From: a phage
Strand: one strand, 5' to 3'
DNA length: 64,000 nt
Assembly (NCBI GenBank): GCA_022897995.1
Contig: GCA_022897995.1_4763.1
In this document: positions 3,772 through 52,081 of the stretch, piece after piece
How the letters are laid out: the number at the start of each line of letters is the position of its first letter
Position numbering within the stretch: position 1 is the stretch's first letter
Made by a program: the position numbers and the translations under genes
The notes under the pieces: generated by a model
What the model was told of the DNA's origin: nothing
Seen by the model: only the letters and a program-made list of their open reading frames with translations
Database searches by the model: none

Positions 3772-3807
3772 TTGACAATAAGAAATGGGAGTAGTAAAAT
3801 ACTCCCA
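3772..3807 (+). promoter_or_regulatory. early promoter with GGGAGTA/TACTCCC stem-loop (PeSL)
   Basis: TTGACA 3772-3777, 17-nt spacer, TAAAAT 3795-3800 inside inverted repeat 3787-3807. Confidence 0.6.
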
Positions 3808-3831
3808 TCTAATCAAGAAGGAGAATCAACA

Positions 3832-4104
3832 ATGCGTAAGATGTTTAAAGCTGGTGTTGCCTATGTTTTTAACTCTGAGCAAGCACGTAAAGACTTCTTA
3901 GAGGATGACTACGAAGGATTGAAAGATACCTACGAAGTCATCAAGAATGGATTTACTGTTCTTAAAGTGTCACCTATTGGTTATGTAAGTGAAATCTCGG
4001 TTGATGGGAAAACATATACCGCTAAAGACTTTGATCCGCGTTGGGAATTTATGCTGCTTCCGTGTGACCGCATTCTGTTTCGTGCTGTTCAATTAGTGAA
4101 ATGA
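3832..4104 (+). CDS. paralogue family member (KNGF(K/T)VL domain)
   Basis: Shares VIKNGFTVLKV...DGKTYTAKDF pattern with 4119-5921 ORFs. Confidence 0.5.
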   Translation: MRKMFKAGVAYVFNSEQARKDFLEDDYEGLKDTYEVIKNGFTVLKVSPIGYVSEISVDGKTYTAKDFDPRWEFMLLPCDRILFRAVQLVK

Positions 4105-4118
4105 TAGAGGATTATATT

Positions 4119-4679
4119 ATGGTACAGAAAACGTATAAATTGTATCCGGCTAAGTCTTCAAATGATGCTGTTTTTGAACGAGGTCGTTATTACACTTTCC
4201 GTAATGCTGAGTCCGCAGAGGAATTTGTTAAACGCTATCCACAACATAACAAGTTCCTGTATGGTGTGCTTCACAAGGGCTTTAAAGTTCTGACGGTTAA
4301 TGTTATGGGTAAAGTGTATTTGGTAGAAACTCATGATTATGAGGGCGCGTCAATCATGATTGATGCAAGCGAGCGCAAATACTTTAAACGCATCACTAAA
4401 AAGCAGTTTGAAGAAATGAAACCAGTTAAGAAAGAAGAATCTCTGGAAGATCTGATTAACTTGTTTGGTAAAGTTCGCTCTATCTCCTTTGCGATTGAAG
4501 ATGACATTACCGACAATAAAATCTTTATCAAGAACGCGGAAGACCTGAAAGAGTTCCTTATTGAAAATAGATCTCGGCTGGAAACCTTTCTTGAAAGTGA
4601 AATTATTCGACATGATACCTACGCTAAATTCAGCGCCGAGAAAGTGGAAGAACTGAAAGAGATTAAAAAGTCACTTTAA
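4119..4679 (+). CDS. paralogue family member (GFKVL / ERKYFKRI motifs, helical C-terminus)
   Basis: HKGFKVLTV and SERKYFKRITKKQFEEM match 4743-5921 (KNGFKVLEK, NERKYFKRISKEAYEAM). Confidence 0.55.
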   Translation: MVQKTYKLYPAKSSNDAVFERGRYYTFRNAESAEEFVKRYPQHNKFLYGVLHKGFKVLTVNVMGKVYLVETHDYEGASIMIDASERKYFKRITKKQFEEMKPVKKEESLEDLINLFGKVRSISFAIEDDITDNKIFIKNAEDLKEFLIENRSRLETFLESEIIRHDTYAKFSAEKVEELKEIKKSL

Positions 4680-4682
4680 CGC

Positions 4683-4718
4683 TTGACATGATGAAACGGG
4701 AGTAGTAAGATACTCCCA
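4683..4718 (+). promoter_or_regulatory. early promoter with GGGAGTA/TACTCCC stem-loop (PeSL)
   Basis: TTGACA 4683-4688, 17-nt spacer, TAAGAT 4706-4711; inverted repeat 4698-4718. Confidence 0.6.
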
Positions 4719-4742
4719 TCTAAACAACGAGAGGATTATATT

Positions 4743-5921
4743 ATGGCTAAATTCTTTGAAGGGCATTACTATGCATTCCGTGAAGGCGGTAAAGATGAGT
4801 TTCTAGACTTTTCTCGCTATTCAATTATTCTGACCGATGCTTCGCGCCGTGGTCATATTCGGGTTGCAGAAATTGTCAAAAACGGTTTTAAAGTATTAGA
4901 AAAAGATGACCACGGTCATGTTATTACTATTGAAGCTGGAGATGTAGTTTATTCCGCTAATGATATTGTGGATTATTGGGCTACTATGATTATGCACAAT
5001 GAGCGCAAATACTTTAAACGTATCTCAAAAGAGGCATACGAAGCGATGAACAAGAAAGAGGATGCAATGCCGACTTACTTTGAAAAAGGTAAATGTTATT
5101 CGTTTACCCCGGAAGGTTTGCAAGAATTTAAGCGATTCTGGGGAGATCATGATCCAGAGCACAAAGAAGCCATGAAACTTGTTGATTTTGTCGAATATGG
5201 CTTTTTAGTTGAAGAAGAATTTCACGGATCGGCTACCATGATCACCGCGAAAGGTGAAACTGTTAAGGCGGATCGTTTTTGTGAACAGTGGAATTGCTTG
5301 TTTGACGGTAGCGAATTTGAATACTTCGCAGAAATCACGAATCATCAATTTCGTTCTATGCAAGCAGATGGTCAGCGATTTAAAGTAGGCGAACGCTACA
5401 AGCCAAATCAGCATAATTTGCCTTATTGGTTTAACACTGAAACCGTATCCAGTCATGTTATTGAAATTGTTCAAAAGCTGGAACAGGGATTTAAGGTAAC
5501 TAAAGTAGATTCTTTCGGAAGTGTTGACGCGGTTGAAATTGATGGTGTAGAATATACACCGAAATCTTTCGGGCTTTGCTGGTATCACTTGATCAGCAAT
5601 GATGAACGTTATAACTTTGTTGAACTGCCATCTGAACCGGAAGAAGCACTAGAAGATCATGATCATCTGTCTGAACTGGTTAAACTGTTTGGCGATCTGC
5701 CGGATGGTGTAGGGGTGGCGGTAATGGGTGAAGGTGCTGTTATCCGAAACCTGAAAGACTTTAAAAAGTTCTTGATCGACATGCTGCCTAAACTCGATGA
5801 GAATCTAGATACAGATATTCAGAATCGCAAAGAAATTGTTAAAGAGACTGAAAAAGAGATCGAAGAGATTCGAGCAATTCGCCAGAAGGTGAAAGCAGTA
5901 AAGAAAAAAGTTAGTGCTTGA
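4743..5921 (+). CDS. paralogue family member with internally duplicated domain
   Basis: Two copies of the GFKV..V..DG / ER(K)Y(F) unit (residues ~40-100 and ~240-290) plus coiled-coil tail. Confidence 0.55.
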   Translation: MAKFFEGHYYAFREGGKDEFLDFSRYSIILTDASRRGHIRVAEIVKNGFKVLEKDDHGHVITIEAGDVVYSANDIVDYWATMIMHNERKYFKRISKEAYEAMNKKEDAMPTYFEKGKCYSFTPEGLQEFKRFWGDHDPEHKEAMKLVDFVEYGFLVEEEFHGSATMITAKGETVKADRFCEQWNCLFDGSEFEYFAEITNHQFRSMQADGQRFKVGERYKPNQHNLPYWFNTETVSSHVIEIVQKLEQGFKVTKVDSFGSVDAVEIDGVEYTPKSFGLCWYHLISNDERYNFVELPSEPEEALEDHDHLSELVKLFGDLPDGVGVAVMGEGAVIRNLKDFKKFLIDMLPKLDENLDTDIQNRKEIVKETEKEIEEIRAIRQKVKAVKKKVSA

Positions 5922-5951
5922 CATGCGAAGGGAGTATGCTATAATACTCCC
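5918..5951 (+). promoter_or_regulatory. early promoter with GGGAGTA/TACTCCC stem-loop (PeSL)
   Basis: TTGACA 5918-5923, 16-nt spacer, TATAAT 5940-5945 inside the inverted repeat. Confidence 0.6.
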
Positions 5952-5975
5952 ACTTAACAACGAGAGGATTATATT

Positions 5976-6470
5976 ATGTGGGTACAAGATGTTTGGTATA
6001 CTGTAACTAAAGAAAACCTTGACGCATTCAGCGACCAATCTTGCGCTAATAGCTCAATTGCTGATATTCTTGAAGATGTTTTTGGCGGTGTAGATAAAAT
6101 TCGTTTTAAAGTTGTTGTTAATTCTATGGGGTGTGTAAAAGACCTATATACCGATGATAAAGACCTTGATCTTAAACTTCATCTTCGTATTGAGAATGCA
6201 AGTCTAGGTTATTGGTTTGAAGATAACGAATATGAATACTTCACCCCAGCAATTAAAGTTTTTGCAACTAAACTGGAAGCTGTACTGAATCTACGACCAA
6301 TTAATGTTGACGGTTACATTATCAAAAATATTCAGGAGTGGGATTCATATCTAGATCAGATTATCCGAAATAGTAAGCAGGAAGCCGCTAATAAGAAGCG
6401 ACAAGAGATCAAACAACTGAAAGCTGAACTGGAAGCGGCGGAAAAAGAATTAGCAGAACTGGTAAAATAA
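5976..6470 (+). CDS. hypothetical protein with C-terminal coiled coil (possible family member)
   Basis: 164-aa ORF after promoter cassette; KIRFKVVV...EYEYF resembles the family pattern weakly. Confidence 0.45.
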   Translation: MWVQDVWYTVTKENLDAFSDQSCANSSIADILEDVFGGVDKIRFKVVVNSMGCVKDLYTDDKDLDLKLHLRIENASLGYWFEDNEYEYFTPAIKVFATKLEAVLNLRPINVDGYIIKNIQEWDSYLDQIIRNSKQEAANKKRQEIKQLKAELEAAEKELAELVK

Positions 6471-8420: not shown

Positions 8421-8448
8421 TTGACAACCTGATTAGCTCATGTATAAT
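8421..8448 (+). promoter_or_regulatory. sigma70-like early promoter
   Basis: TTGACA 8421-8426, 16-nt spacer with TG, TATAAT 8443-8448. Confidence 0.6.
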
Positions 8449-8479
8449 GCTCACATTGAAACAACGAGAGGATAACATT

Positions 8480-9016
8480 ATGTTTTGTGTATTGAATAAA
8501 GAAATTAAAATTCGTAAACTGGAAATTGGTGATGGTGTCGTTGTTAAAATGCACGCCAGCACACTGGCTAGCTTTGGTACAAAAGAAAGTTTCTTTATTA
8601 TGGGAACGGTTGTTAATATCTGCTGGAGTAAAGGCGAAGGCACACAAATCCGTAGCTTTTGTGTCGTTGACGAAGATAATAACCTGTATGTGATTCGCTA
8701 TCAGAATCAATCTGTGTTGGTTTATACCGACAATTCACGAGAACTGTATACGCTGGACTTTGCTAAACTGTGTGATTGTGATAAAAAGATTCAGGCGTAC
8801 CACACAGAAGGCTGTTTTGGTGTTGGCGTCGAAGAGGAAGAGTACATCCCATTGGAAGTTGGGACAGAAATTAAACATAGTGCCACGGATCGTATTTTTA
8901 CGGTTGTCGCTGTTAATGCAACTCAATTTGTAGCACAAGCGCATAATACGGGATTCGTTATCTATGACATTGGTAATGCAAGTTCTCATTTTGATGGCGT
9001 ACAATTTCGTTTATAA
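8480..9016 (+). CDS. hypothetical protein
   Basis: ATG 8480 after GAGAGGATAACATT ribosome-binding context. Confidence 0.5.
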   Translation: MFCVLNKEIKIRKLEIGDGVVVKMHASTLASFGTKESFFIMGTVVNICWSKGEGTQIRSFCVVDEDNNLYVIRYQNQSVLVYTDNSRELYTLDFAKLCDCDKKIQAYHTEGCFGVGVEEEEYIPLEVGTEIKHSATDRIFTVVAVNATQFVAQAHNTGFVIYDIGNASSHFDGVQFRL

Positions 9017-9787: not shown

Positions 9788-10280
9788 TACATACGGCAAA
9801 CTACGCTATGCCGATATTAAAGATTGTGATATGGTTAACGGTGAGGGAGTGAGAGTCTCCCTTTACGTCACCGGATGTTCACACGCATGTGATGGTTGCT
9901 TTAATTCCAGTCTACTCAATCCTAAGAACGGGGAAACATTCACCGATGATACAATGGGATTGATTCTGGATCTGCTTAGACCTGATTTTATTCAGGGGCT
10001 AACATTCTTAGGTGGCGATCCACTGTATAAACGCAATTTAAAGGGTGTACAACGGATCATCGATGAAGTAAAATCATGGATGCCAAATAAAGATATTTGG
10101 CTATGGTCTGGTTATACCCTTGACCAATTGAATGATGAGCAAAGAAAAATTGTAGAATCAGTTGACATGTTCATCGATGGGCGTTATATTAAAGATATGC
10201 CAACGAAGAAGCCGTGGCGGGGGTCTGACAATCAAGTACAATACAAGATTGTTAATAGTATTCCAGTGAAAATTATTTGA
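9777..10280 (+). CDS. nrdG: anaerobic RNR activating enzyme NrdG
   Basis: Radical-SAM CSHACDGC cluster and VNGEG motif; downstream of nrdD. Confidence 0.85.
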   Translation: MSSDTYGKLRYADIKDCDMVNGEGVRVSLYVTGCSHACDGCFNSSLLNPKNGETFTDDTMGLILDLLRPDFIQGLTFLGGDPLYKRNLKGVQRIIDEVKSWMPNKDIWLWSGYTLDQLNDEQRKIVESVDMFIDGRYIKDMPTKKPWRGSDNQVQYKIVNSIPVKII

Positions 10281-10290
10281 GGTGATTATT

Positions 10291-10818
10291 ATGGAATGGG
10301 AAGTAGGTAAAATCTACAATATTAAATGCGAAGTGTCGAAAGCTGAACTGACTAAGTTTTCACCATCCATTAACAATGCGATTCTTGATTTGATTGGTGA
10401 TCGTTCGTTTAAGGTAGAAGCACTTGATGCTGATGGTGATGTTAGTAAAATTACCATTATTGGCGAAGAGACCGAGCCGATGACGTTACGAGAATCCCCT
10501 ATTAATTTTCATGGTGTTTGGTTTTGGTCGGGTGAGCGTCGTTTCTTTACCGAAGTTACTATTGAACCTAAGATTCCAGAATCGGAAGAAAAAGAAGAAG
10601 ACCTAACTTTAGAGCGTCTGGGTCTGCTTATGGAAGCCTACGACATTCAGTTGATCGATAAGATGGGGTTACATAATAGCATTGCCAAAATTACTACCCT
10701 AGAAGGTATTAAGAGCGTACTGGATGGTATGCCTAGCCGGATCGGTGCTATCCGCGAATACAAGCAAACTCGCGACCGTATGATCCAATTAGAATCACGT
10801 ATCAAAAATGAGAGATAA
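10291..10818 (+). CDS. member of tandem paralogue array (MEWEVGKIY... type)
   Basis: WE.GK.Y N-terminus, IGD..FKV, ERRFFTEV, helical C-terminus. Confidence 0.55.
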   Translation: MEWEVGKIYNIKCEVSKAELTKFSPSINNAILDLIGDRSFKVEALDADGDVSKITIIGEETEPMTLRESPINFHGVWFWSGERRFFTEVTIEPKIPESEEKEEDLTLERLGLLMEAYDIQLIDKMGLHNSIAKITTLEGIKSVLDGMPSRIGAIREYKQTRDRMIQLESRIKNER

Positions 10819-10822
10819 TATT

Positions 10823-11287
10823 ATGAAATGGGAAGCTGGTAAGACCTATGCGTGGAAAGATGTAAAAGATGCAAACCAATTTTTTAAATGGTATGATGTT
10901 GATTATTTGAAATATCTGAGATTACCGTTTAAAGTTGCGTCGGTTGATGCGAAAAAAGGATACGTGCGGTCTGTATATCTTCATGATGGAACTTATATGA
11001 GTTCAACCGATGTAGGTCTATCTTGTTGGTTTCTGGATCATGACCGTAGCAGATTTGAAGAAATTATTATTCCAGAAGAATCTAAACTGATGGACCTTCT
11101 CAAGTTGGCGATGGATAATTATAAAATTCGCTTTGAATGCAAATCACATGCGGCTATCGGTGCTAACGCCTTGCGTCATATCTCCAGTTTTGAAGAGTTG
11201 AAAGATTTTCTTGACAAAATGCCGGAAAGGGTGCAAGCTATACAGGAAGCAGAGAAAGCATTAAACGAACTTGATAAAATCGGTTAA
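10823..11287 (+). CDS. member of tandem paralogue array
   Basis: MKWEAGKTYAWKD; same architecture as neighbours. Confidence 0.55.
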   Translation: MKWEAGKTYAWKDVKDANQFFKWYDVDYLKYLRLPFKVASVDAKKGYVRSVYLHDGTYMSSTDVGLSCWFLDHDRSRFEEIIIPEESKLMDLLKLAMDNYKIRFECKSHAAIGANALRHISSFEELKDFLDKMPERVQAIQEAEKALNELDKIG

Positions 11288-11299
11288 GGGGAATATATT

Positions 11300-11848
11300 A
11301 TGAAATGGGAAATTGGTAAAACTTACACTTGGAAAGATGAAAACGCTAAAACTGAGTTTATTACTAACGTAGCAGGTGATCTTTCTCCACTTAACAGCGA
11401 TATTAGTGCAGCTATTGGTGACAAGCCATTTACCATCATCGAGATCGAGGGTAATGGTTGGATTGATGCAATAGAGCTAGACGGTGTTTATCATACGGCG
11501 AAAACGGCTACAGGAAAAGACATTTGGACGTCAACATATTTGTTTAGTCCATTTGATAGAAAATATTTTCGTGAAGTTGAAACAGTGAAAGAACCAGAAG
11601 AAAAGGTGAACGATGATTCTAAGATCGTTGGACAGTTGAAACGTCTGTTTAGTAGTCGTTATGGCCTGACGATGGTTAAATTTGGCGAAGCAAATGAAGG
11701 TAAAACCTTTGAACGTTTCGATGATTTTATTGCAGCACTTGACAAGATGGACGAAATCATGCAAGATCGCCAGAAGATTAAAGATCTTCAAAAAGACATT
11801 AAACGTCGTGAAGTTGAATTTTTGATCGGTAAAGAGCGAGGTTGGTAA
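11300..11848 (+). CDS. member of tandem paralogue array
   Basis: MKWEIGKTYTWKD, IGDKPFTIIEIEG...DGVYH, DRKYFREVE. Confidence 0.55.
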   Translation: MKWEIGKTYTWKDENAKTEFITNVAGDLSPLNSDISAAIGDKPFTIIEIEGNGWIDAIELDGVYHTAKTATGKDIWTSTYLFSPFDRKYFREVETVKEPEEKVNDDSKIVGQLKRLFSSRYGLTMVKFGEANEGKTFERFDDFIAALDKMDEIMQDRQKIKDLQKDIKRREVEFLIGKERGW

Positions 11849-11849
11849 T

Positions 11850-12332
11850 ATGTTTGTTGTTGGTATGACCTATCAGTGGAAAGATTATAAAACAAGAGAA
11901 GATTTTGCAAACTCTAGCGTTGCAAATGATGCAATAGCAGAGTTTATCGGCGACCGTCCATTTAAAGTTATTGCGTTTGATCACCATGAACCAGATATCG
12001 ATTATGTTTCTGTGATTGAAATTGATGGCACGGTATACCCCTGTCGCAATGTTGATGATGTACGGGAATACGCGCACAACTGGTTTTTGCAATCAGAAGA
12101 ACGTTATTTTAAAGTGGTATCGGCAGAACTGACTACTGATGCAATGTTGGAACAATTTTTCAACAACTACGAAGTTTCTGTACGTCGATATGGTGAAGAG
12201 GAAGTATTTAAAATTGATGACTATAATCAGTTTAAACGAGTATTCGCCACTAAGATCCAACGTGATATTGAACGCGAGAAGCGCATCAAGGAACTGGAAG
12301 AAGAACTTGAAAGATTAAAGGCCGAGAAATGA
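11850..12332 (+). CDS. member of tandem paralogue array
   Basis: MTYQWKDYK, IGDRPFKVIAFD, EERYFKVV, coiled-coil C-terminus. Confidence 0.55.
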   Translation: MFVVGMTYQWKDYKTREDFANSSVANDAIAEFIGDRPFKVIAFDHHEPDIDYVSVIEIDGTVYPCRNVDDVREYAHNWFLQSEERYFKVVSAELTTDAMLEQFFNNYEVSVRRYGEEEVFKIDDYNQFKRVFATKIQRDIEREKRIKELEEELERLKAEK

Positions 12333-12767: not shown

Positions 12768-13055
12768 ATGTTAGTACACAATGCAATCGCACACATGGTT
12801 TACTCTCGATTTGGGTGCATGGAAGAAATCAATATTACCGACGCGGATTTAGATCTGATGCAAGTCGAAGGCCAGACATATCTGAAAAATAACGGCGTGA
12901 ATATCGGTAAAGCGCGTGTGCGTGAATTGTTGGTTGAATATATTCTCTCTGAATTTGGCATTAGTGCTTTCGGTGTGAAAGAGATTGCACCGAAGCGCGA
13001 AATTTCTGATAAAATGATCAAGAAATGCCAGAAAGCACGACGTAAGGGTTTCTAA
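12768..13055 (+). CDS. hypothetical protein, translationally coupled to downstream NTPase
   Basis: ATG 12768 after GAGGAA; stop overlaps next start (TAATG at 13053-13057). Confidence 0.45.
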   Translation: MLVHNAIAHMVYSRFGCMEEINITDADLDLMQVEGQTYLKNNGVNIGKARVRELLVEYILSEFGISAFGVKEIAPKREISDKMIKKCQKARRKGF

Positions 13056-14524
13056 TGAAGATTGAAACATTAATCGCATTGCCAGCGGCGGGGAAAACTG
13101 ATGCTATACTTTCCCACGTCCTAGAGACAAAAGAAAAAGCGGTTATTGCTTCGCCATCTCGTGTTTTAAGTGAACAATCTTACAATAAGTTTAAAAGAAT
13201 GGGCGGTCGTGCTGTCTTGATTGATAGTACCAGACTAAGAAGCCTTAAGACAGTGCAAGCGTCGATAATGCAATCAGTTAAAGATGGTGCTGATGTGATA
13301 TTCATTACACATACAGCGTTATCTAATATGGAACGTTCAAAAATGTTTGGTGAATATGCTCTTTACATTGATGAAGTTCCTCAACTGGTTGAATTTAATG
13401 AGTATCCGTTTAAGTCTAATCTTGAACTTATCACGAAGCATTGCGAACCAATCGCCGACGAATCGGAATGCCTACAGAACCTAGTTCTAAAAGACTCTGA
13501 GAAGGCCGCTATCAAAGAAAAGATAGAAAGTGCAAAGGATGGTACTGATATGATCGATTCTTCTCTTAGAGGGCTTTATGAGGCGTTATTAGAGAAGAAA
13601 ATCAACGTTATGGTAAAACATAACGAAGGACACCGGAAGAATGGGTCTAAAATTGTTTTCTTGAACGATAACAAACACGGTACGTGGGGAGACTTTAAAA
13701 AGGTTACGATAGCATGTGCAAATCTCTTTGATACATATAGCGGGAAGTATCTACGATACTATGCAAATTGCGATTTTGTTCCGAGTGCGCTAGAATCCAG
13801 ACTATATTTCAAAGAGTATAAAAATACAGATAGAGTTAATATCATCCTTATGACGGACTCTGAACGATGGTCGCGTCACCAGTCAGAAACAAACAATACC
13901 TTTGAACGTCTTGTTGATATGGTTAAAAATGAATGTGGTGATGATTTCATTTATACCGTGAATCGGGACCGTGAAGCGTGCACAAATGGTATTGGTGAGC
14001 GGATACCTTACGGATCTTATGGTCTTAACTCTTACATTCATCATAAAAATGTTGCTGTGATGTTCAGCTTTAACCCTCAACGATGGGAGATTGATATTTT
14101 AAAAGGTCTTGCTAATAGTTGCGATCTCCCAACAAACGAGTTTTTGAAAGCGCGTCATGTGTCTGATTATCTGGAACCAGCATTTCAATTATGTTTGCGT
14201 TGTAACCTGAGAGACAACGAGAGCAAGGAGAATGTTAATCTATATGTTCCTGATTGGGCGTTGGTGGATTATCTAAAAAAGTTTCTGCCTAATGCCAATG
14301 TAATAACAGACCGAATGATTCCGCTAGAATGTGGTGAGCGTAAAGGGCGAAAATCATTTAAAAAGATGTTCGACTTTAACGAGCAAGAGAATGCAAGATT
14401 TAACGGATTTAAGTACCGCATGAAGAAAAAAGGAAAAACTCTTGATCCGTCTGACGGTGAATCTGTAGAGATGGTTAGAGTGTGGATAACTAAGCAAAGA
14501 AAGTATAATGGCAATGGGGAATAG
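13055..14524 (+). CDS. P-loop NTPase, helicase-like
   Basis: Walker A ALPAAGKT (res 8-15), motif Ia-like VIASPSRVLSEQ, Walker B/DExx ALYIDEVPQ (res ~100-108); 489 aa; not placed in a known T4 gene. Confidence 0.55.
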   Translation: MKIETLIALPAAGKTDAILSHVLETKEKAVIASPSRVLSEQSYNKFKRMGGRAVLIDSTRLRSLKTVQASIMQSVKDGADVIFITHTALSNMERSKMFGEYALYIDEVPQLVEFNEYPFKSNLELITKHCEPIADESECLQNLVLKDSEKAAIKEKIESAKDGTDMIDSSLRGLYEALLEKKINVMVKHNEGHRKNGSKIVFLNDNKHGTWGDFKKVTIACANLFDTYSGKYLRYYANCDFVPSALESRLYFKEYKNTDRVNIILMTDSERWSRHQSETNNTFERLVDMVKNECGDDFIYTVNRDREACTNGIGERIPYGSYGLNSYIHHKNVAVMFSFNPQRWEIDILKGLANSCDLPTNEFLKARHVSDYLEPAFQLCLRCNLRDNESKENVNLYVPDWALVDYLKKFLPNANVITDRMIPLECGERKGRKSFKKMFDFNEQENARFNGFKYRMKKKGKTLDPSDGESVEMVRVWITKQRKYNGNGE

Positions 14525-15316: not shown

Positions 15317-15604
15317 ATGACTTACGATGAACAACATGACCAGATTGCAGTGAATGAAGTAGACAAAGTACAAGCAGAACTAGAGGCGAAAGCCGCTAAG
15401 AAAGCGGAAAAGATCTTGCGTAAGAACTCGCGAGAGATTGCACGCCTTAAGCGGTGGGCTGAACAAGCTATCATCGATGATAACCGTGATGCGTATATCT
15501 ACGCTATCGGAAAGTTACGTGATATCTACAAACAGCCACACACGCCAGAACTGCTTTCTGCTATGTGGATTAGTACACGGCAAACGGTATTAAGTATGCT
15601 GTAA
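15317..15604 (+). CDS. hypothetical protein
   Basis: 95-aa ORF, helical. Confidence 0.4.
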   Translation: MTYDEQHDQIAVNEVDKVQAELEAKAAKKAEKILRKNSREIARLKRWAEQAIIDDNRDAYIYAIGKLRDIYKQPHTPELLSAMWISTRQTVLSML

Positions 15605-15620
15605 TGGCTTTATAAGGGAG

Positions 15621-15650
15621 ACTCCGAAAGGGGTTTCCCTTTTTATTTTT
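15621..15650 (+). terminator. intrinsic terminator
   Basis: ACUCC-GAAA-GGGGU tetraloop hairpin followed by TTCCCTTTTTATTTTT. Confidence 0.55.
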
Positions 15651-15694
15651 CTATGATATAGTGAGAACATCTAAAACGAAGAGAGGAAGAGACT

Positions 15695-16720
15695 ATGAAA
15701 ATTTTGCTTTTGGGTGATCTGCATACTGGTATCGGTGGCGATGATCCGTGGGTGCATGAGTATATTCTTGATACCATCAAGAAAGCGGTTGAATACTCCA
15801 AAGAGCATAATATTAAGACATGGATTCAAACAGGGGATTGGTTTGATTGCCGCAAGGCGATAACTCATGAAACCATGAAATTTAACCGTACTAAGGTCAT
15901 CCCATTACTGGAAGAGGCTGGTATTACTTGTTATATCACGGTCGGGAATCATGATATGTTTAAACGAAACAAGATCCAGCCTAACGCGCCGCGTGAAGTG
16001 TTAAGCCAGTATGATTGCATTAAGGTTATTGATAAACCGGAAACAGTTACCTTTGATGGTGTATCATTTGATCTGTTCCCGTGGTTTTGTGATGACAATA
16101 AATCAGAGATTTTAGAGTTTATTCAAAACTCATTCAGCGAATATTGTGTAGGCCATTGGGAATTGTCCGGTTACTATTTCTATAAAGGGCTAAAATCCGA
16201 AGGTTATAGCGCGGACTTCCTCAAGAAATACCGTGAAGTGATTTCCGGTCACTTTCATACTATTAGTGATGGGGGTAACGTAACGTATATTGGCACACCA
16301 TACACACTAACGGCGGGTGACGAAAACGACCCGCGTGGGTTTTGGGTATTCGATACCGACACACACAAAAAAGAGTTTATCCAGAATGATAAAACTTATC
16401 ATGTGCGTATCACTTACCCGTCAGATGATAAAATCGACGTAGAACGCTATAAGGGGCTGAGTGTGCGTCTTATTGCAACGGTCGCTGATAATGGGTTGAC
16501 TAAGTTAGAAAGCGCGTTAGAGACCGTTGTACACAAGCTAAAAGTGGTCCATAAGCTGGAGAGTAGCGCATCACAGGAAACAGGTGTTATTGAAGTTAAA
16601 AGCACTATTCAGATGGTCTATGAATATCTGGAAGAACAAAACCTAGAACCGGAAGAACTTGCGGCGGTCAAGCGTATTTCTGATGAACTTTTAGCCGAAG
16701 TAAATAGCGCAAAAAGTTAG
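15695..16720 (+). CDS. 47: recombination nuclease subunit gp47 (SbcD/Mre11-like)
   Basis: 341 aa; phosphoesterase motifs LLGDLHTG, TGDWFD, GNHD, GHFH. Confidence 0.85.
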   Translation: MKILLLGDLHTGIGGDDPWVHEYILDTIKKAVEYSKEHNIKTWIQTGDWFDCRKAITHETMKFNRTKVIPLLEEAGITCYITVGNHDMFKRNKIQPNAPREVLSQYDCIKVIDKPETVTFDGVSFDLFPWFCDDNKSEILEFIQNSFSEYCVGHWELSGYYFYKGLKSEGYSADFLKKYREVISGHFHTISDGGNVTYIGTPYTLTAGDENDPRGFWVFDTDTHKKEFIQNDKTYHVRITYPSDDKIDVERYKGLSVRLIATVADNGLTKLESALETVVHKLKVVHKLESSASQETGVIEVKSTIQMVYEYLEEQNLEPEELAAVKRISDELLAEVNSAKS

Positions 16721-30555: not shown

Positions 30556-31191
30556 ATGATCGCTAATGCTTTACCGCCAAAATGGATCGTAAGTCGCTTT
30601 TATACTCTCAAGGAAGGTAACGCACCTGATGGTCGTCCGATCCGAGATCTGTTTCTGGAGATGACTACAGCCGAAGCACAGTTTTATAATGATCTGACAG
30701 ACGATAAGCCATTTCTCGTAAATTCGGTGGACCTCGATGGCAATGTCACATCAATCATCACACATGGTGGGGGAGTGAAAAATATTACTTCTCTGCGTGA
30801 TCACGGTTGGGAAATTGCTTGTGTATTTCCTGCGGATGTACGCGGATTCTTTGATGAGGTATCTGATATTAAAGTAAATGCACTAGAACCATATAACGAG
30901 AACCCACCCCTGAAAGAAGAAAAAGAGTTGACACCGGAAGATGTAGGTAGTACACTACACCCAGACCTATTTAAGAAGATTAGCGGTTTATGGACTGTTA
31001 CCCTGTATCCAACCGCATTAGGTCTAGAATTGGGTATGCCAACTTATTCTGATATTGATAACTGGAATAAGAGCATTGATAAAGATGTTGAAAAACAGCG
31101 AAATAATGCTAAAATGCAACTTAAAGAGAAACGCAAAGATCTTGAACGACAACTGAAAGAAACAAAACATTTGCTTTCTACATTCGCTTGA
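30556..31191 (+). CDS. hypothetical protein
   Basis: 211-aa ORF; basic coiled-coil C-terminus. Confidence 0.45.
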   Translation: MIANALPPKWIVSRFYTLKEGNAPDGRPIRDLFLEMTTAEAQFYNDLTDDKPFLVNSVDLDGNVTSIITHGGGVKNITSLRDHGWEIACVFPADVRGFFDEVSDIKVNALEPYNENPPLKEEKELTPEDVGSTLHPDLFKKISGLWTVTLYPTALGLELGMPTYSDIDNWNKSIDKDVEKQRNNAKMQLKEKRKDLERQLKETKHLLSTFA

Positions 31192-32138: not shown

Positions 32139-32693
32139 ATGAAACGGTATTGTGATGAACATCCAGAAGAATGGAAAGACCTTGTTTATATGGGCGTATC
32201 GTATCCAGAATATGAAATTAGTTCTTATGGTAAACTAAGAAATAAAGCCACTGGCAAGGTCAGATCAACTAAAATAACAAAAGGTTATGTCTCTTGTAAT
32301 ATCAGAGATTACGCCAACAGAACAAAGTCAGGCAAGCCAAAGACCGTCGGCGTTTATATTCATAGGGCATTAGCAGAAGCATTTATACCAAATCCAAACA
32401 ACTACCCTGTAGTAAATCACAAATTTGGTGATAAAAAAGATTTTGATCTGTATGGCCTTGAGTGGACAACACAAAGAGAAAATCTTATACACGCTAAAGA
32501 AGAAGGATTGAACAAAAACTATGGAGAAACACACGGAAACGCAAAGTTAACTGACCATCAAGTAGAAGAGATCAGGTCTAAACAGGGTGTTGCGTCTGTA
32601 AAAGAACTTGCTGTAATATACGGAGTGCACACGATAACCATAAGAAGAATATGGAAGAGTCAGACCAGAACATCACGATATAAAGAGAGGTGA
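32139..32693 (+). CDS. free-standing HNH endonuclease (NUMOD4-HNH family)
   Basis: YEISSYGKLRN (NUMOD4-like) then HRALAEAFIPNP...VNHKFGDKKD...LEWTTQREN HNH_3-type core. Confidence 0.75.
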   Translation: MKRYCDEHPEEWKDLVYMGVSYPEYEISSYGKLRNKATGKVRSTKITKGYVSCNIRDYANRTKSGKPKTVGVYIHRALAEAFIPNPNNYPVVNHKFGDKKDFDLYGLEWTTQRENLIHAKEEGLNKNYGETHGNAKLTDHQVEEIRSKQGVASVKELAVIYGVHTITIRRIWKSQTRTSRYKER

Positions 32694-51836: not shown

Positions 51837-52081
51837 GATTAGAGCAAGCGATTGTTTATTTTGAGATGGGTTATGATATTGCTCGTGTAGAATGGGAAGA
51901 TGGTGATTTTGTACGATTGATCGATCTTCCAGAAACAGCTATTGCACTGGTCAAAGTAGAAAACGGCATACAACGCAATTACGCGTTTTCTGACGAAGAC
52001 AAACAAGCCGATGACTGGTACGCTACCTGTTTTCATCATACAGCGTCAAAATGTGATTCAGGGGCTTCTATGCGCCAATAA
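51833..52081 (+). CDS. hypothetical protein
   Basis: 82-aa ORF; last + strand gene before convergent terminator. Confidence 0.35.
   Translation: MRLEQAIVYFEMGYDIARVEWEDGDFVRLIDLPETAIALVKVENGIQRNYAFSDEDKQADDWYATCFHHTASKCDSGASMRQ

Follow-up and report, generated by a model that had tools for sequence, protein, structure and literature searches.

Four tandem genes located between nrdG and nrdH in a stretch of phage DNA of 64,000 nucleotides (nt) (NCBI GenBank assembly GCA_022897995.1, contig GCA_022897995.1_4763.1; this whole stretch is hereafter called the window) are, by their homology and by their architecture, lineage-specific tandemly duplicated members of the T4 GoF/Frd.2/MotB.1 family, which groups non-structural early proteins. 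These genes, named here A, B, C and D from 5′ to 3′, occupy positions 10,291 to 12,332. The array that they form is an expansion of an already-named family and not a new kind of system.

Homology and distribution

An earlier note on this DNA had described four back-to-back genes of 160-182 amino acids (aa) belonging to one domain family. The four back-to-back open reading frames (ORFs) were found as described, with actual sizes ranging from 154 to 182 aa (154 aa for B). Their membership in a single domain family was confirmed by their pairwise identities (26-31% over most of their length), by their common match to phrog_5347 (function unknown; E-values from 1e-49 to 1e-59) and by leave-one-out tests of a domain profile covering the N-terminal ~95 residues, in which each of A-D was recognised (E-values from 5e-12 to 3e-18). 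Secondary matches to three PHROGs annotated 'goF' were also obtained. The sequence signatures proposed in the note hold less uniformly. The opening motif MKWExGKTYxWKD is exact in B and C but reads MEWEVGKIYNIKC in A and MFVVGMTYQWKD in D, and the motif IGD(R/K)xF(K/T)(V/I) was found in A, C and D but not in B. The motif ER(K/R)(Y/F)F fits partially, the actual sequences being ERRFF (A), DRSRF (B), DRKYF (C) and EERYF (D).

The relationship with the named family was apparent with several profiles. A profile built from the four copies scored T4 GoF at 25.7 bits, and the leave-one-out domain profile scored GoF at 43 bits, Frd.2 at 25 bits and MotB.1 at 16 bits. Comparison by hhalign of a 45-sequence family alignment with a GoF alignment gave a probability of 96.9% (E-value 1.6e-10) over 87 columns, all within the N-terminal domain. 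In the RefSeq annotation of phage RB49, the upstream paralogues RB49p058 and RB49p059 are named 'goF mRNA metabolism modulator' and RB49p048-051 are 'hypothetical'. Searches of Pfam, NCBIfam, PDB (by sequence) and Rfam with the array returned nothing above threshold. The GoF/Frd.2/MotB.1 family has been described as an 'LSm-like fold' family with three genes in T4, whose proteins begin with a five-stranded barrel, structurally close to FeoA/IdeR and Hfq, and end in a C-terminal domain that varies between members; RB49 and paralogue arrays are not mentioned in that work (Kim et al. 2025, PMC12152347).

The family is small, since only 113 clusters were retrieved at an E-value of 1e-3 or less when 1.84 billion cluster representatives were scanned exhaustively with HMMER. 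Most of these clusters have sizes of 120-280 aa and carry one to three domains. A structural search of BFVD gave 65 matches, nearly all from T4-like phages and including a VR7 protein annotated GoF. Judging from these BFVD matches, two apparently adjacent proteins of Aeromonas phage phiAS5 (consecutive accessions E1A2G9/E1A2H0) and three Pectobacterium PM2 proteins look like further arrays in other T4-like genera. At the nucleotide level, the 2.6 kb around the array match 59 phage records (90-95% identity), with a coverage of 80% or more in 54 of them. These records come without exception from RB49-like coliphages, i.e. from the genus Krischvirus (Straboviridae family), to which the window itself belongs. 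On this sequence evidence, the four-gene array is conserved across Krischvirus genomes and not peculiar to the window.

Predicted structure

Structure prediction, one of the checks suggested in the note, was run on C. The AlphaFold2 model has a mean predicted local distance difference test (pLDDT) score of 76.8 and shows a barrel followed by a helical C-terminal part. The barrel is modelled at a pLDDT of ~90 (85-93 over residues 1-70), with strands at residues 8-11, 44-49, 55-60, 63-66 and 90-92 and two helices inserted between strands 1 and 2. It is followed by a disordered acidic linker (residues 96-104, pLDDT <50) and then by a helix, a small hairpin and a terminal helix of ~40 residues. 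The coiled-coil ending announced in the note is thus recovered as a predicted C-terminal helix; the coiled coil itself is plausible, its structural neighbours being generic coiled coils only. The barrel adopts an SH3-like fold in the model, and its closest structural neighbours are FeoA and the SH3-like domains of the iron-dependent repressors DtxR and IdeR. Acidic barrels, with a net charge of -6 to -9, are found in A, C and D. The columns that are conserved across paralogues are mostly aromatic or glycine (Y9, F20, F44, V46, G53 and F90) and appear to be fold-forming, not obviously catalytic. In the family alignment, no His or Cys is conserved across paralogues and conserved metal ligands are absent.

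Evolution of the two modules

The ratio of nonsynonymous to synonymous substitutions (dN/dS, omega), which the note had also suggested as a check across the copies, was calculated here together with identity between the window and six related Krischviruses, for whole genes and per module. Overall, omega ranges from 0.0 to 0.41 in the four genes. Since purifying selection acts on all four, A-D are real coding genes and their translation is supported.

The barrels and the C-terminal parts evolve differently. The A barrel is 68-73% identical to its counterparts (omega 0.41-0.51) and the A C-terminal part 97-100% (omega ≤0.06); the corresponding values are 59-88% (omega 0.31-0.38) for the D barrel and 88-100% (omega ≤0.08) for the D C-terminal part. 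B is 97-100% identical throughout the six genomes (omega 0-0.12), and the flanking nrdG and nrdH are 99-100% identical. The barrel alleles fall into discrete classes, two for A and at least three for D, where phiS carries a mosaic, and between JK32 and RB49 the identity of the second C barrel is as low as 41%. Shuffling of N-terminal domains between gene positions was considered and rejected, every barrel of the seven genomes being closest to the barrel found at the same position. As read from these alignments, the variation consists of same-position allelic replacement together with intragenic mosaics. In the GenBank records, gene B of FL15 (L004 1109-1589) and gene D of ELT4 (L003 2139-2635) each appear as two ORFs, which may correspond either to a frameshift or pseudogene or to a sequencing error.

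Gene C also varies in the number of its barrels. Up to ...SPFD, the window C protein matches barrel 1 of the JK32-type allele and, from RKYFREVE on, it matches the sequence located 3′ of barrel 2. The crossover falls within a direct repeat of ~25 nt that encodes D/E-R-K-[YF]-F-R-E-V-E. ELT4 shows an independent deletion of like kind, derived from an RB49-type allele and located inside a perfect repeat of 29 nt. From the comparison of these alleles, window C has lost one barrel through recombination inside the motif-coding repeat, precisely in frame.

Correspondence with the T4 GoF mutants

T4 GoF (comC-alpha) is an early protein of 141 aa in which the substitutions D25Y and G84R permit growth on rho (nusD) hosts. 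It is abundant and dispensable; GoF and MotB.1 form dimers on gels, GoF gave no confident homomultimers with AlphaFold 3 (AF3), and a reporter RNA with the 5′ untranslated region (UTR) of gene 41 has a longer half-life in the presence of GoF(D25Y) (Kim et al. 2025, PMC12152347). The T4 family members are dispensable in the laboratory, and in a CRISPRi-ART screen frd.2 was the only T4 fitness gene of unknown function.

Both MAFFT and hhalign place GoF G84 opposite the third residue of the E/D-R-[RK]-[YF]-F motif. The residue found in this column is R in A and D and K in C and in two of the upstream copies. Since most copies carry a basic residue there, the G84R substitution restores the family consensus. 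A correspondence for D25 was also sought and dropped, as this residue falls in a gapped loop that is placed differently by MAFFT (F and W residues there) and by hhalign.

Other members, genomic context and expression

The note had linked the array with genes located at 3832-5921 and had counted at least eight copies of the domain near the anaerobic ribonucleotide reductase (RNR) genes. This kinship was confirmed for 3832-4104, 4119-4679 and 4743-5921 and widened to 5976-6470, so that eight genes with 10 domains surround nrdD/nrdG, and a ninth gene lies at 30556-31191 (Table 1). In total, the window carries nine genes and 11 domains, and the RB49 genome nine genes and 12 domains, all between 12 and 39 kb; the domain profile detected no copies beyond these nine genes in the remainder of the window or in the whole RB49 genome. 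The C-terminal helical part of the three-barrel protein (4743-5921) is related to that of A-D (profile match, E-value 0.0019), and 5976-6470 has matches to phrog_3710 and phrog_622 in common with A, C and D. The ninth gene probably encodes the Dc2 orthologue, judging from the dc2 annotation of RB49 and from synteny rather than from an alignment; the Dc2 protein of ECD7 (211 aa) is among the BFVD structural matches. This gene adjoins gene 41, on whose mRNA GoF(D25Y) acts in T4, which may be a coincidence. At the T4 position of goF, RB49 (L009 5128-5971) has no goF, cef, motB or motB.1, and its 39.2-like gene is directly followed by dexA. The GoF-family genes of Krischviruses sit instead around the nrd genes and gene 41.

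Table 1. Members of the GoF family and associated features in the window
Feature	Position	Strand	Description
Upstream member	3832-4104	+	90 aa, barrel only; phrog_16115; phrog_5347 1e-7; leave-one-out 47 bits
Upstream member	4119-4679	+	186 aa, basic barrel (+5.8, isoelectric point (pI) 9.5); phrog_8944 1.6e-100; RB49p059 'goF mRNA metabolism modulator'
Upstream member	4743-5921	+	392 aa, three tandem barrels; three domain matches of 79-88 bits; RB49p058 annotated frd.2/goF
Upstream member	5976-6470	+	164 aa, weaker match; leave-one-out 22.4 bits, E 4e-6; not in the earlier note
Candidate sigma-70-like promoter	10162-10190	+	TTGACA, 17 nt, TATATT; consensus scan; inside nrdG 3′ end, ~100 nt 5′ of A
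Paralogue A	10291-10818	+	175 aa; GoF-like barrel (~aa 1-96), acidic linker, helical C-terminal part; phrog_5347 4.6e-58
Paralogue B	10823-11287	+	154 aa; most conserved copy, near-neutral charge, pI 6.1; phrog_5347 3.1e-59
Paralogue C	11300-11848	+	182 aa; single-barrel allele of a gene with two barrels (274-277 aa) in most relatives
Recombination junction in C	11555-11584	+	codons for (D)RKYFREVE; both repeat copies of JK32 and RB49 compared with the window and ELT4
Paralogue D	11850-12332	+	160 aa; most divergent barrel; phrog_5347 2e-54
Distant ninth member	30556-31191	+	211 aa, directly 3′ of helicase gene 41; profile E 2.8e-6; leave-one-out 27.8 bits

The gene order of the window is that of RB49 (dam, nrdC, 49, four small ORFs, nrdD, three ORFs, nrdG, A-D, nrdH, 55, 47, 46). 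The tight, operon-like packing pointed out in the note was verified, the gaps of 1-12 nt being distributed as 10 nt between nrdG and A, 4 nt between A and B, 12 nt between B and C and 1 nt between C and D. The stop codon of D overlaps the nrdH start by 4 nt (ATGA), and each of A-D has its own ribosome-binding site (RBS), a GAGG-like Shine-Dalgarno sequence located 6-9 nt upstream. No terminator-like site was found inside the array, nor more widely on the + strand between 8410 and 13000. No T4-type late promoter motif (TATAAATA) was found in the + strand block extending from 1 to ~52 kb, array region included; therefore, the array region belongs to early or middle territory. The GC skew is uniformly positive over this block. 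Its sign changes from + to - near 52000, which fits a reversal of transcription where the early block gives way to late genes located on the opposite strand.

In the T4-type hyperplastic regions, accessory paralogues are shuffled by means of PeSL cassettes, which combine a promoter and a stem-loop (Arbiol et al. 2010, PMC2839356). In the window, PeSL-like cassettes of ~60-80 nt were found at 3772-3834, 4683-4745, 5918-5978 and 8421-8482, i.e. 5′ of 3832, 4743, 5976 and 8447, so that they front three of the upstream GoF-like genes and the unrelated ORF 8447. They comprise a near-consensus TTGACA/TATAAT promoter, a GGGAGTAGTAA.ATACTCCC stem-loop (GGGAGT...ACTCCC) and a conserved RBS (GAGAGGATTATATTATG). 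The stem-loop is clear in the 3772 and 4683 copies; the 5918 and 8421 copies share only an RBS-proximal repeat of ~41 nt and a promoter match. By their sequence, these elements look like the PeSL mobile regulatory cassettes of RB49 and phi1. No such cassette lies between the genes of the four-gene array. The only nearby promoter match is the candidate located inside nrdG, whose conservation in relatives is uninformative because it is embedded in a highly conserved coding sequence. Since the array has neither a cassette nor a promoter match closer than this one, and since the surrounding interval is devoid of terminator-like sites, A-D are likely co-transcribed with nrdG and nrdH.

Other genes of the window call for a few remarks. 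The ORF 13055-14524 (+ strand, 489 aa), hypothetical in RB49 (RB49p044), has a marginal match to a DEAD/DEAH helicase N-terminal model (27.4 bits for a cut-off of 26) and a Walker-A-like PAAGKT near its N-terminus. Between dc1 and the primase gene 61, the window carries an ORF of 184 aa (32139-32693, + strand) with a NUMOD4 motif, typical of homing endonucleases; the RB49 annotation shows in this interval three short hypothetical ORFs only and no endonuclease-sized gene. Conversely, the window (15604-15695) lacks the HNH endonuclease located between a-gt.4 and gene 47 in RB49. Therefore, from the loci considered (window 32139-32693 and L001 14966-15520), mobile endonucleases use different sites in the two phages.

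Possible functions of the array

The reading that we favour, which we see as about equally poised between right and wrong, is that A-D act early, as adaptors in dimeric form, with a barrel that binds a host partner linked with RNA metabolism; the expression timing, the dimerisation, the kind of partner and the pathway are what we infer here. The four genes and nrdG/nrdH would be expressed as part of one long + strand early unit from sigma-70-type early promoters. The ~95-aa SH3-like (FeoA-like, 'LSm-like') barrel would be the specificity module that binds the partner. For A, C and D, this partner would more likely be a protein than an RNA, because of the negative net charge of their barrels. 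The conserved C-terminal part could serve as a common dimerising or effector scaffold, dimerisation being the most likely role, although in A-D themselves it is hinted at only by the long C-terminal helix. By analogy with the genetics of GoF, i.e. the suppression of rho alleles and the stabilisation of gene 41 mRNA by D25Y, the affected pathway would most likely be host RNA metabolism or transcription termination, and the different copies would then tune the takeover in different hosts or conditions.

Several points weigh against this adaptor scheme. Its mechanism is drawn by analogy, wild-type activity being undemonstrated for any family member, and the RNA reporter assay showed no clear effect of GoF and MotB.1 in their wild-type form (Kim et al. 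2025, PMC12152347). The candidate promoter at 10162-10190 is a consensus match within a coding sequence. The C-terminal part is modelled with modest confidence (pLDDT 52-85, or 69 in a separate model of this part), and its structural matches are all generic coiled coils. Furthermore, the synonymous divergence (dS) is raised in the barrels (0.36-1.0); therefore, their divergence reflects in part the recombinational import of old alleles and not faster evolution in place.

The barrels might instead contact RNA directly, A-D being chaperones or protectors whose Hfq/LSm-like barrels would shield phage transcripts from RNases or from Rho-dependent termination, with a set of transcripts for each copy. 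GoF(D25Y) prolongs the life of the reporter RNA with the gene 41 5′ UTR and the fold was called LSm-like (Kim et al. 2025, PMC12152347). The upstream copy 4119-4679 has a basic barrel, and R or K is the consensus of the family where GoF acquires the G84R suppressor. For A, C and D, the acidic barrels point towards protein partners, and we consider this RNA-binding role unlikely. A further alternative is that the array is an arms-race set for counter-defence or host range, in which variable barrels neutralise or evade polymorphic host defence or restriction proteins, with diversifying turnover of copies and alleles. Such a set would agree with the discrete, diverged alleles of the A, C2 (second barrel of C) and D barrels (41-72% identity), the genomes being 92-99% identical elsewhere and keeping constant C-terminal parts. 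It would also agree with the changes in domain number by recombination, which occurred independently in the window and in ELT4, with the 12 domains of RB49 as against three genes reported in T4 and with the location of the genes in an early, accessory, hyperplastic region. However, omega is below 1 in every comparison, B is almost invariant, no exchange of N-terminal domains between different gene positions was seen and the literature searched ties no family member to any defence system, which makes an arms race a rather improbable explanation. A combined form, which we regard as doubtful to a similar extent, would see the array as a diversifying panel of dimeric binders, with a hypervariable barrel directed against polymorphic host factors (of defence or of RNA metabolism and termination) and a constant tail having a shared effector or oligomerisation function. 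The repeats at the barrel boundaries (KWExGKTY... and ...DRKFFREVE) would then be in-frame recombination joints by which barrels are added, deleted or swapped. If true, T4-like phages would possess in the GoF family a modular toolkit for host range or counter-defence.

The genomic neighbourhood suggests yet another role, that of accessory subunits of nucleotide or iron metabolism, the FeoA-like barrels helping the anaerobic reductase by supplying iron or by assembling a complex for deoxynucleoside triphosphate synthesis. Eight of the nine genes flank nrdC, nrdD, nrdG (the radical S-adenosylmethionine iron-sulphur activase) and nrdH, T4 frd.2 lies near frd, td and nrdA, and FeoA and iron-dependent repressors are the top structural neighbours. 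The lack of conserved metal ligands and the differing genomic contexts of the family in T4 make this role very unlikely. It is less probable still, to the point of being hardly credible, that A-D are decaying, functionless duplicates kept by linkage alone. B is split in FL15 and D in ELT4 according to their GenBank records, and the T4 family members can be dispensed with in the laboratory. On the other side, the window and most of the 59 genomes carry the four ORFs in intact form, and the overall omega values are 0-0.41, with no value above 0.08 for the C-terminal parts. Moreover, C lost its domain exactly in frame, and T4 frd.2 was scored as a fitness gene by CRISPRi-ART.

Comparison with known systems

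Several features that define the GoF/Frd.2/MotB.1 family were found in the array, namely N-terminal homology, a bent five-stranded barrel, FeoA/DtxR-IdeR structural neighbours, a linker followed by a variable C-terminal domain and an early location in a T4-like phage. Like T4 GoF, its members have a homologous N-terminal barrel with a FeoA/IdeR neighbourhood and an acidic linker after the barrel, are encoded in the early region of a T4-like phage and have no Pfam or NCBIfam model. They differ from GoF by an identity of only ~25-30%, by a C-terminal part that is unrelated in sequence (unaligned by hhalign), longer and ended by a helix of ~40 residues, by R or K at the G84 position in A, C and D and by their arrangement as a tandem four-gene array beside nrdG/nrdH; the T4 goF locus (39.2, goF, cef, motB) is missing from RB49. 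Frd.2 and MotB.1 share with the array the same domain profile (25 and 16 bits, respectively) and the succession of a barrel and a variable C-terminal part. However, they are single-copy and dispersed in T4, whereas Krischviruses have nine genes and 11-12 domains, including two- and three-barrel proteins.

The likeness to FeoA and DtxR/IdeR is a resemblance of fold and not family membership. The identity is 8-11%, there is no match to Pfam FeoA (PF04023), the context has neither feoB nor a metal regulator (the neighbours are nrdG and nrdH) and no metal ligands are conserved. With Hfq, Sm and LSm proteins, the array shares a small five-stranded antiparallel barrel, and the only functional datum on the phage family concerns RNA stability. 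Membership in the Sm/LSm/Hfq group was considered and set aside, as the model begins with a strand and not with an N-terminal alpha-helix and has two helices between strands 1 and 2. No Pfam LSM or Hfq match was obtained for the array even at E-values up to 1, and Hfq or Sm proteins are not among the nearest structural neighbours of its barrel. The paralogues of the PeSL regions (Arbiol et al. 2010, PMC2839356) belong to the same phage group and also occupy a variable early region, and PeSL-like cassettes precede the upstream members. In contrast to these paralogues, the variation of the array stems from recombination inside coding repeats and not at PeSLs.

Taken alone, the finding is a lineage-specific expansion of paralogues, of a kind often seen in the hyperplastic regions of T4-like phages. 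However, GoF has resisted explanation in T4 since the 1970s and its family was recognised only in 2025. Krischviruses offer a natural experiment on this family, with a fourfold expansion of the domain, proteins with one, two or three barrels and discrete barrel alleles on constant C-terminal parts. These features and the natively basic residue at the position of GoF G84R point to residues and modules that are worth testing. What is new here, namely the variable barrel on a constant tail, the in-frame loss of a domain at a motif-coding repeat and the G84R correspondence, provides useful leads on GoF.

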